From an uncultured archaeon (GTDB lineage Archaea; Asgardarchaeota; Heimdallarchaeia; Heimdallarchaeales; Kariarchaeaceae): a DNA stretch of 11,634 nt. The notes under the pieces were generated by a model. That model made no database searches. It was not told where the DNA came from and saw nothing but the letters and a program-made list of their open reading frames with translations. The DNA lies in NCBI GenBank assembly GCA_964645535.1, contig CAZYCQ010000064.1, forward strand, positions 1 to 11,634, in the 5' to 3' direction. Shown in pieces: positions 2,092-4,911 of the stretch; the first letter of the stretch is position 1; every line of letters starts with the position of its first letter. The position numbers and the translations under genes were made by a program.

Positions 2092-4911
2092 TCAGTTGCA
2101 GCATTTCTGCTTCTTGCCGGTTGCGGCAGAGCCGGTTGCAACAGCTCCGCTGGCAGCTGCAACTCCTTGGGCAGTGCCTGAGTCGGTTTTCGGAGCAAAT
2201 GGACCAAGAATGTCAACATAGAAGTCCAGAACCTCCACTTTCACGGGGTTTTTTAGTTTTTTATGAGGAATGTTCTCTTGGTAGAGAACCATTCCCCATT
2301 TGTACCTGTAGTTCTGGAAATCATCCAATTTTGGAATGTCATGGATCGTGGCAGAATAGACCGCGTCCTTTCCTTTTACTGTTGTTCCCGTGGTGGTCCA
2401 TGTCTCCTCTGTACTGATTTCCGTTTCCACAAAGAAAGCTCCAGACTGTATCCTGCCTCTAATACCGCCTCCGAAATGTCCTATAATTGATTCGTCTTCG
2501 GCTATCTCCTCTGAAAAAGAAATCTCAAGTGCCGTTGTTCCTGAACCTTGTCCGATCTCTTTAAGGGGAGTGATGTAGACTCCATCCTTTCTGGTACTTG
2601 GATCTGGATCGGCTGGTAACTGTGTTACTTTTCTATAGGTTCGTGGGTCTCCTGGCTTGTGCGTGATCACGGAATCAATCTGGAAATCCGGGAACATCTT
2701 CTTGAATACCGAAAGTTCCGACTTTCTGAGTTCGGAGGAGATGGGTTTGAAGTAGGTGACTATGGTTCCGATCTTGCTCCTGTCCGGATGTTTGACCACC
2801 TTGTATCTGGATTCAATGCCTTGTGCCACCAAATAGACAATGGCATCGGTTGTTCCGGCTTCAAATGTTTGGGTTATTGTCATGGTGGTCGTTTTAGTCG
2901 TTGTAGTCTCCCTTCCTCCTCCGCCTGCAACCGTGACGCCTGCCTCGAATTCACCTGCCTTTATGAAAAGGGCGTTGACTTCAGTTTGGAACCCTGCCGT
3001 GATACTTGCGGACACATCCCATCCAAATGTCTTTGATGTTCCAGATCCCTCACTTTTTGAGGATCCAAATGCAGATGTTGTATCGTCGTCATTGACACCC
3101 TCTACAAATGGCGGGGCTGCCAAGATGATAAGGGGTGTTGCATCAACGCTTTTTTCTTTGGCATCCATGAATTCCAACTCGGTCTTTCCATTGAAATTGC
3201 CTACGACCACATAATTGACCTTATTGATCTCTCTCTCATAATAACAATCGGGACCTCTGCAATAATACCCATAATTATCATAAAAGCCACTAATATCAAA
3301 CATTTTGTATACAGTGTCTTTTTCTTTCTCTATTTTTCCTAGCTTGCAACTCTTTGCTTTTAATGGATCTGTCCAGTCTTTTTGTCGGTTGTCATAGGGA
3401 CAAACAACAGATAGTCGTAGATCATATTTGATGATGGCTGATCCTCTTATTTCTATAACTTCGTCATACTCGTCCTCGTCAAAGTCCCCGACTAATATCC
3501 TGTCCAATGGTCTATATCCCCTATGTGGTCTGTCTAAATAATCTAGCTCCCTTGTATCCAATCGCTTTGTATTCAATCGAAGGATCTCGTTTCCAGTTTC
3601 GAATTCTTTTACGACTATGTCGCTTCTTGTAGATTTCCAATCTGCTTTACAGTACATTTCCACCTTTCCGTCCTTGTTTGCATCCGCAAAAGTGATTGGG
3701 GGATGACAAGGAGCTTTTTCTCTGATTAACCAGTCATGTTTCCATCGTCCATTGTCAAACTTGACATACCGTATCCCATTTTTCAACCAATTTTCAAAAA
3801 ATATTACATCGGCTTTTTTATCCAAGTCAAAGTCCGTAAATGTCGAAAAACCACCCGTGCTCATACTAAGGTAATCCAATTTATATGGTGAGGAGGTGGT
3901 AAACAATATGTGGAAATACTTCATTTGGTGGATTCTAGCCCAATTTCCTCTTCCATGAAACATTTGCAAGAGAATTTCATCTTTTCCATCTCCGTTCATA
4001 TCTTCAGCAGCTGCCTGTCCGTAAAATTTGAAAACCTCCCGTCTGCAAGCTTTTTGGGCACCGCTCGAAGACTCATCCAAAAAACTTAGGGTATTGAAAC
4101 AGTAAGCCGCCCAAATGAAGGATCTGTAGCCTGTTGGATCCAACAATGTGACGTCTGTCCAGACTTTCTTTACGAACCTGATTTTGTAGTTACTGTCGAC
4201 GTCAAATATATTGAAATATACATACATTCTATCATAAATCGGAATAGGCCATGGTTCAATAACTACGATTTCATCGTTAGGATCATCATCGACATTTGCT
4301 CCAACCGGTATTGCTGCGTTTGAAGTGTATGCAAGGTAGGAATACTTATCTCTGAAGATCCATTGACCATTGCTCCATTCTTCCAGAACAATATTGAAGT
4401 TACGTGTTAATTTTCCTCGACCTTCAAGTGTACTCGAATCATAGTCAAAGTAAACTCGAACTCGTAGATCCTTCCCTGTATTCAGAAAGTCTCCTTTTGT
4501 GACCATCTCTCCATTATTGTCAAAAACTGCCTTTTGGGAGCTTGTTGGAGATGTGCATCCCCTATTTTCAGACCAATCGCAGGTTCCACTACTCTTCAAT
4601 GAAATTGTTCGTCTGACTTTTCCTTGAGATGTCCAAAATCCTTCTCCCTGTGTATACGCAAAAATTTCCCTTGTCCATGTAATTTGCTTTTTGTCCTCCA
4701 GCACAATGGGAGGTGCAGATTCAGAACTTTGGGAAAGTTGAAGGGAGGTGTCCTTTGATGCTGGTAATTGGACAGGTTGTATATCCGTGTTCTCATGGTG
4801 CTTTGGAGTTGCTGTTCCGCCTATTGGTAATACAAGCAATCCAAACTGCATCAAAAACAAGAAGAGGAATATTCCTCTGAACTTTCTTGACTTGAAAATT
4901 TTGCTATTCAT
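2092..4911 (-). CDS. Secreted FG-GAP/VCBS-repeat beta-propeller protein with a C-terminal aerolysin-like (putative beta-pore-forming) region, 939 aa
   Basis: Start moved from the track's 4932 to ATG 4911 (GAGGT 7 nt upstream, 8-nt overlap with the upstream stop). Signal peptide MNSKIFKSRKFRGIFLFLFLMQFGLLVLPIGG. About 7 DxDxDG-type loops (GDFLNTGKD, ANVDDDPNDEIVV, EDMNGDGKDEILL, TDFDLDKKADVIF, ADANKDGKVEM, GDFDEDEYDEVIE, GNFNGK). Two Ser/Thr-flanked alternating hairpins in the last third. The CDS is certain; the pore-forming function is inferred. Confidence 0.85.
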   Translation of the reverse strand: MNSKIFKSRKFRGIFLFLFLMQFGLLVLPIGGTATPKHHENTDIQPVQLPASKDTSLQLSQSSESAPPIVLEDKKQITWTREIFAYTQGEGFWTSQGKVRRTISLKSSGTCDWSENRGCTSPTSSQKAVFDNNGEMVTKGDFLNTGKDLRVRVYFDYDSSTLEGRGKLTRNFNIVLEEWSNGQWIFRDKYSYLAYTSNAAIPVGANVDDDPNDEIVVIEPWPIPIYDRMYVYFNIFDVDSNYKIRFVKKVWTDVTLLDPTGYRSFIWAAYCFNTLSFLDESSSGAQKACRREVFKFYGQAAAEDMNGDGKDEILLQMFHGRGNWARIHQMKYFHILFTTSSPYKLDYLSMSTGGFSTFTDFDLDKKADVIFFENWLKNGIRYVKFDNGRWKHDWLIREKAPCHPPITFADANKDGKVEMYCKADWKSTRSDIVVKEFETGNEILRLNTKRLDTRELDYLDRPHRGYRPLDRILVGDFDEDEYDEVIEIRGSAIIKYDLRLSVVCPYDNRQKDWTDPLKAKSCKLGKIEKEKDTVYKMFDISGFYDNYGYYCRGPDCYYEREINKVNYVVVGNFNGKTELEFMDAKEKSVDATPLIILAAPPFVEGVNDDDTTSAFGSSKSEGSGTSKTFGWDVSASITAGFQTEVNALFIKAGEFEAGVTVAGGGGRETTTTKTTTMTITQTFEAGTTDAIVYLVAQGIESRYKVVKHPDRSKIGTIVTYFKPISSELRKSELSVFKKMFPDFQIDSVITHKPGDPRTYRKVTQLPADPDPSTRKDGVYITPLKEIGQGSGTTALEISFSEEIAEDESIIGHFGGGIRGRIQSGAFFVETEISTEETWTTTGTTVKGKDAVYSATIHDIPKLDDFQNYRYKWGMVLYQENIPHKKLKNPVKVEVLDFYVDILGPFAPKTDSGTAQGVAAASGAVATGSAATGKKQKCCN

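Follow-up and report, generated by a model that had tools for sequence, protein, structure and literature searches.

In the aerolysin and ETX-MTX2 groups of beta-pore-forming toxins, each protomer contributes one hairpin, that is two strands, to the barrel, whereas each protomer of the MACPF/CDC proteins and of the gasdermins contributes two hairpins, which are stored around a bent central sheet in the form of helical bundles or loops. To our knowledge, the geometry of four strands per subunit has so far been seen in the MACPF/CDC proteins, the gasdermins, the secretins, and CsgG, and we know of hardly any documented pore-forming proteins in archaea. The stretch of DNA considered here (the window; 11,634 nucleotides, positions 1 to 11,634 of contig CAZYCQ010000064.1, assembly GCA_964645535.1) comes from an uncultured archaeon of the Kariarchaeaceae, within the Asgardarchaeota, and carries on its minus strand a gene for a protein, called the hairpin protein below, in which two long hairpins lie within one C-terminal module. 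An initial annotation, made from the sequence alone, had proposed that this is a duplicated aerolysin-like pore module providing four strands per subunit, an interpretation that is partly supported here. From sequence profiles and predicted structures, the best reading, to which a probability of about 0.55 is attached, is that this is a barrel-forming module of an unannotated family, with two hairpins and so four strands contributed by each protomer.

The hairpin protein is encoded by a single minus-strand open reading frame (ORF; window 4932-2092), which has 946 codons when counted from a TTG in frame at 4932. Translation probably starts at the ATG at 4911, and the resulting protein of 939 amino acids (aa) is identical to one on record from NCBI assembly GCA_003696825.1. 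Residue numbers are those of the 946 aa form, unless the 939 aa form is named. The features on which the argument depends are as follows.

2092..4911, minus strand: gene of the hairpin protein, 939 aa (ORF and protein on record)
2188..3141, minus strand: unnamed C-terminal module of about 320 aa, aa 598-915 (conserved in 225 cluster representatives)
2857..3078, minus strand: hairpin 1, aa 619-692, with Ser/Thr-rich upper arms and the hydrophobic tip NALFIK (AlphaFold2 and sequence)
Window 3027-2911, minus strand: amphipathic distal part of hairpin 1, aa 636-674
2341..2538, minus strand: hairpin 2, aa 799-864, with acidic upper arms and a Gly-rich tip (AlphaFold2 and sequence)
Window 2487-2398, minus strand: amphipathic distal part of hairpin 2, aa 816-845
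2539..2556, minus strand: conserved IGQGSG motif, aa 793-798, at the base of hairpin 2 (conservation; interface in the three-copy model)

Hairpin pattern and likeness to membrane-inserting stems

The peptides quoted in the initial annotation are all present exactly, at aa 624-690 for hairpin 1 (window 3063-2863) and at aa 802-854 for hairpin 2 (window 2529-2371). In the first arm of hairpin 1 there is a strict alternation of hydrophobic and polar residues over 19 positions, FGWDVSASITAGFQTEVNA, a length that is reached by 0.2% of 2000 shuffles of the hairpin protein. Among the 2842 ORFs of at least 150 aa in the genome, alternation of 19 residues or more is found in eight, that is in seven besides this one. 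Conservation across homologues is a stronger argument than the length of the run in a single protein. In an alignment of 142 homologues, at about 23% identity to the hairpin protein, the mean hydropathy of hairpin 1 alternates sharply at 636-654 and 662-674 between flanks rich in Ser/Thr (618-635 and 675-689), while that of hairpin 2 alternates at 818-828 and 835-843, with a Gly-Gly tip between. The near-perfect alternation, hydrophobic tip, and Ser/Thr tracts on both sides that had been described for hairpin 1 are borne out.

Hairpin 2 had been described as less strict and very acidic. The first of these is correct for this copy, where Gly occupies several of the outward positions, and family-wide the pattern is clearer than in this protein. 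The acidity is real, the net charge being -7 over aa 799-854 versus a family median of -5; for hairpin 1 the charge is -1 in this copy and the family median is -3, so that both hairpins are net acidic across the family. An alternating insertion hairpin with Ser/Thr-rich flanks, as in the aerolysin superfamily, is thus seen here in the pattern, in its conservation, and in the profile matches of hairpin 1.

Profile searches of about 178,000 distinct PDB sequences are the most informative test of the nature of the hairpins. With a profile of the whole module, Cry78Aa is aligned over hairpin 1 (expectation value (E) 8e-6) and anthrax protective antigen over hairpin 2 (E 0.007). When hairpin 1 is used alone, 20 of the 21 matches are aerolysin-type toxins, led by Cry78Aa (E 6e-7), Sip1Aa (2e-4), CEL-III (8e-4), and Cry23Aa (6e-3), with weaker matches to BinA-like proteins, CPE, epsilon toxin, natterin-like proteins, and monalysin. 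Hairpin 2 has 39 matches, of which 36 are counted as pore formers, from several unrelated folds and all at E of at least 0.009; these include BinA-like proteins, monalysin, epsilon toxin, the 2beta2-2beta3 region of protective antigen, Vip1, gamma-haemolysin, CPE, and a gasdermin-like protein. As a control, a profile of the 105-residue linker between the hairpins has no pore-former match and only four unrelated matches, at E of at least 0.49. Since the matches are almost all to the stems of pore formers and the linker control gives none, the profiles support the view that both hairpins carry the physical signature of membrane-inserting stems. Hairpin 1 is, by profile, specifically aerolysin-like, as had been proposed.

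The C-terminal domain of Cry78Aa is an aerolysin-family pore-forming domain in which the membrane-spanning region is alternating and Ser/Thr-flanked (PMC9363482). That hairpin 1 overlaps this region is judged from the aligned sequence only. In language-model features the domain comes close (0.86-0.88) to the clusters of aerolysin, ETX_MTX2, and monalysin, which is taken as a lead only.

The C-terminal module is without a Pfam or NCBIfam family, both in the hairpin protein and in 60 relatives. Matches to PF01117, PF03318, PF05431, and PF18063 are absent from the whole protein at E of 0.1 or below and from the families listed for the 60 members, and neither the protein nor these members have a Pfam MACPF or gasdermin match. 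Over hairpin 1 there is a weak PKD_4 match that falls short of the cut-off (E 0.012-0.048); it was put down to composition and set aside.

Predicted structure of the module and its oligomer

In an AlphaFold2 model of the domain, made with a 60-sequence alignment (mean predicted local distance difference test score (pLDDT) 77.5, core mostly above 90), two hairpins with about 32 residues per strand project side by side from the core, at aa 619-651/661-692 and 799-830/833-864. These limits are close to those at which the hairpins had initially been placed. The two arms are equal in length, and the conserved alternation of each falls at its tip. In the full-length AlphaFold2 model (pLDDT 66.6) both hairpins stay extended and are not packed on the propeller that lies N-terminal to them. 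An ordinary soluble beta-sandwich, which the initial annotation had named as the contrary outcome, is seen in neither the domain model nor the full-length model.

In Foldseek the top 40 matches are all secretins, at E 1e-6 to 1e-3 and template modelling (TM) scores of 0.09-0.17; VIA-align also ranks secretins first. Kinship with the secretins was rejected on the poor superposition, and the matches are read as a shared shape, a four-stranded long sheet of paired hairpins. A fold search of the ESM Atlas found only unannotated relatives, some of them FG-GAP proteins (945-977 aa) and others stand-alone (279-348 aa), together with one secretin cluster at TM 0.21. The modelled core of the module is a fold that is not recognised in the Foldseek, VIA-align, and ESM Atlas searches.

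Three copies of aa 598-919 were modelled together with a 142-row alignment and compared with three controls. The scores are 0.72, 0.72, and 0.70, versus 0.00 for the best control, with at least 92% of contacts shared between runs and pLDDT of at least 73. Of the calibration proteins, 20 of the 30 with a solved same-chain pair and 1 of the 23 with a solved single chain reached the mark, a comparison that holds only roughly here, as three copies and a custom alignment were used. In the confident interface the second strand of hairpin 1 (aa 661-695) lies against the first strand of hairpin 2 (aa 794-829) in the following copy, and in the core aa 734-742 touch the conserved GQG motif (aa 793-798) of the neighbouring copy. 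The sheet so formed runs without a break from one molecule to the next and takes four strands from each protomer, a result that expresses the confidence of the model and is not a measurement. The four strands per subunit that had been suggested are in agreement with this predicted sheet, into which the hairpins of all three copies are joined. The duplication that had been suggested is not established, and no claim of it is made, because the hhalign alignment of one half with the other is confined to the hairpins, at a probability of 37% (E 3.6e-4). The order of elements is alike in both halves of the module in the AlphaFold2 model.

With the aerolysin-type toxins the hairpin protein shares a layout of head plus pore module, an amphipathic insertion hairpin between Ser/Thr tracts, and a predicted side-by-side oligomerisation, and hairpin 1 is modelled as a single long strand pair, as in the pore states of aerolysin and lysenin. 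Unlike the aerolysin superfamily, where there is one hairpin per protomer, there are here two conserved hairpins, both of which are part of the modelled sheet between protomers. Membership of the aerolysin family is not established, and one of its defining features, the single hairpin, is not what is found. Four strands per subunit entering a barrel, as in MACPF/CDC proteins and gasdermins, would suggest a large pore, and hairpin 2 has weak matches (E ~1) to an insecticidal MACPF protein and to one that is gasdermin-like, but in contrast to those families both hairpins are beta-hairpins in the models here, and the core from which they project is a different one. With the whole-domain profile, residues 272-342 of anthrax protective antigen align to hairpin 2 (E 0.007-0.02), and we take this segment (2beta2-2beta3) to be the stem-forming loop. 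The fold of protective antigen is unrelated, with one hairpin per protomer, and the likeness to the stem of protective antigen and Vip1 is one of physical type.

Gene layout, three-gene module, and family distribution

The remaining parts of the hairpin protein and the two genes on either side of it are listed here.

4810..4911, minus strand: signal-peptide-like N-terminal segment with a basic n-region and a hydrophobic core, then GGTA (read from sequence)
3163..4320, minus strand: FG-GAP (integrin-alpha-like) beta-propeller with DxDxDG-type loops, about aa 205-590, limits approximate (Pfam)
2095..2187, minus strand: Ala/Gly/Ser/Thr-rich C-terminal tether, aa 916-946, ending GKKQKCCN (low model confidence)
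1060..2076, minus strand: downstream co-oriented gene for a 338 aa polytopic membrane protein (adjoins the hairpin gene in two other archaeal contigs)
4904..5884, minus strand: upstream gene in the same orientation, encoding a membrane-tethered protein with many N-glycosylation sequons, 326 aa from ATG

The N-terminal segment is a putative signal peptide and is modelled as a helix at aa 12-23 of the 939 aa form in the full-length AlphaFold2 model. On the N-terminal half of the protein, Pfam FG-GAP_3 scores 33.1 bits against a cut-off of 26.9, and seven GDxDGDGxDE repeats in the family consensus correspond to an FG-GAP propeller with calcium-type DxDxDG loops. It is from this consensus that the count of seven blades is taken, the propeller region having pLDDT 50-85 in the full-length model. 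At the other end of the protein, the tail looks like a conserved sorting or lipidation signal of some kind; similar basic, Cys-containing tails end the closest archaeal relative and another archaeal relative at 29% identity.

The start of the hairpin gene overlaps the stop of the upstream gene by 8 nucleotides, and after its own TGA come AGGAGGT and the downstream ATG, so the three genes are taken to be one transcription unit. The same three-gene arrangement is kept in the two closest archaeal relatives (L006:5988-7001, L007:6481-7431, L007:2208-3248), in which the downstream membrane protein is 66% and 41% identical; the upstream protein is 33% identical in one of them. The membrane protein is better conserved than the hairpin protein, whose C-terminal module shows identities of 44% and 29%. 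For the 338 aa membrane protein, Pfam and NCBIfam have no family and Atlas features and fold search gave no usable lead, and PADLOC has no match to any of the three proteins of the module. In the closest relative the homologue of the hairpin gene (L006:3123-5976) is called as two ORFs, of 417 aa and 470 aa, with a gap of 187 nucleotides, which may reflect a frameshift, a fault in the assembly, or a propeller that has become shorter.

A word-indexed homologue search returned only the hairpin protein itself. An exhaustive HMMER search with aa 585-946 gave 225 cluster representatives, 47 of them below E 1e-10. Most of the 225 are 800-900 aa long with the module C-terminal, usually behind an FG-GAP propeller, and its conserved motifs are AAPP, HxxGDPxxY, (V/I)GQGxG, and (V/I)GDI. 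The module is present in 24 of the 301 genomes searched in the phylum, including 6 of the 10 from the same family, with one copy in the genome described here. That copy scores 233 bits with the family profile, far below other genomes of the phylum (up to 399 bits); the copy in this lineage belongs to a divergent subgroup, in which the tips of both hairpins carry insertions.

Among bacteria the carriers include Planctomycetota, of which Saltatorellus ferox Poly30 is in culture, while Bacteroidota, Pseudomonadota, and Bacillota are indicated by automatic Atlas cluster labels, a lead only. A lipobox Cys followed by a poly-Gly linker is present in at least 44 of 125 complete bacterial-type members starting with Met, and these are predicted lipoproteins. 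At the two bacterial loci that were inspected there is no conserved partner gene. Literature searches on FG-GAP together with aerolysin or pore formation, and on pore formation in Asgard archaea, gave no account of this family.

The genome itself is a 3.6-Mb assembly, 89% complete. Its S28e ribosomal protein, its actin of eukaryote-like type (455 bits with Pfam Actin), and its EAP30 proteins of ESCRT-II mark it as that of an Asgard-type archaeon; no ribosomal RNA was found in it. Elsewhere in the window, on the plus strand, are a 607 aa WD40-repeat protein (6544-8367), with very strong matches to eukaryote-type WD40 propeller families, and a 936 aa protein with Big_7 and CBM_56 domains (8519-11329).

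Pore module, surface arm, or resident channel

If the module is indeed a barrel-forming one, the signal peptide would export the hairpin protein, the FG-GAP propeller would most likely be a binding head, and protomers would line up next to one another, joined by the conserved core, of which the GQG motif is a part. Each would then give two hairpins of about 32 residues per strand, and the second strand of hairpin 1 would pair with the first strand of hairpin 2 in the following protomer until the ring closes with four strands per subunit. The outward hydrophobic belt at the distal tips of both hairpins would sit in the membrane, and the inward face of the barrel would be rich in Ser/Thr/Gly and net acidic. 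Pore formation itself, insertion into a membrane, another cell's membrane (not the producer's own) as the target, the number of subunits, the selectivity, and the pore width are points that we infer. In the archaeal subgroup the downstream polytopic membrane protein may serve for self-protection or as a docking partner, a suggestion made purely from gene linkage.

There are several observations that weigh against a barrel. The distal halves of both hairpins have pLDDT of only 40-60 in the domain and full-length models (41-56 in the former), so the extended state is only predicted and may be the model's guess, and structure predictors readily place beta-hairpins side by side. The PDB matches are limited to compositionally biased hairpin segments, and those of hairpin 2 spread over unrelated folds, for which reasons the likeness is read as a shared physical type and not as common descent; the Gly residues at outward positions of hairpin 2 in this copy count on the same side. 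No Pfam toxin family is present among the 60 members scanned (E of 1 or below), and the lipoprotein signals of 44 of 125 members would fit an envelope-resident channel or a surface protein as well as a toxin.

The hairpin protein might instead be a structural or adhesive protein of the cell surface, in which the hairpins pack face to face, or against a partner, into a long soluble beta-arm, or else serve strand-swapped oligomerisation in a surface lattice, and never enter a membrane. The position of the gene among surface-protein genes, its predicted co-transcription with that of a tethered glycoprotein, the C-terminal tether, the many lipoproteins among its bacterial relatives, and the FG-GAP propeller, which is typical of adhesins, are all consistent with this, as is the low confidence of the hairpin tips in the models. 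It is nevertheless thought unlikely, as the amphipathic belts at the distal tips have about the length of membrane-spanning strands and are conserved in 142 members, neither model packs the hairpins into a sandwich, and the profile matches are almost exclusively to membrane-inserting stems, with none for the linker control. The same alternation in Ser/Thr-rich strands is common in surface proteins, and seven other ORFs of the genome have runs of at least 19 residues, which raises the further idea that this is an ordinary beta-rich domain whose toxin-like look is compositional and whose extended hairpins and oligomer are artefacts of prediction. The weak PDB E-values of hairpin 2 (0.009 at best) and a HMMER bias of 4-6 bits on the hairpin alignments would agree with it, but hairpin 1 matches four different aerolysin-type toxins, with E of 6e-7 to 8e-4 among them, the pattern, arm lengths, and tip positions are kept at about 23% identity, and the oligomer score is far above the controls. 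An origin of the signal in composition is accordingly regarded as very improbable.

A channel resident in the outer layer or membrane of the producer itself, of the CsgG or secretin kind and used for export or uptake rather than for attack, in which the oligomer of an anchored protein would insert a barrel with four strands from each subunit, is also rather improbable. Secretins (GspD, InvG, PilQ, phage pIV) and CsgG are the best structural matches, with a four-stranded long sheet per subunit and a giant barrel, and some are lipoproteins, as are many members of the hairpin family. Unlike them, the hairpin protein superposes at TM of no more than 0.17 and has no sequence relation, and the hosts of its family include archaea and, by cluster labels, Bacillota; it has no secretin N-domains and no gate, and neither the secretin domain model (PF00263) nor the double-walled secretin fold fits it. 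The likeness to secretins and CsgG is probably an analogy of shape only.

The two-hairpin, barrel-forming module remains the preferred reading. Despite 225 cluster representatives in archaea and bacteria, no named Pfam or NCBIfam family covers this domain of about 320 residues. If barrels form as modelled, they would be a new class of beta-pore former, combining an aerolysin-like stem signature with a geometry of four strands per subunit, and would add one pore former for archaea and a new scaffold for large nanopores; the cultured carrier Saltatorellus ferox Poly30 makes the idea directly testable. It is a good deal more speculative, and is offered as a long shot, that the domain founds a new superfamily of beta-barrel pore formers, common to bacteria and Asgard archaea, in which two pre-formed hairpins supply the four strands of each protomer, and that in the archaeal three-gene module it acts as a contact-dependent intercellular pore or conduit and not as a diffusible toxin. 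Such an intercellular pore or conduit, if true, would be relevant to the interactions of Asgard archaea with their partners.

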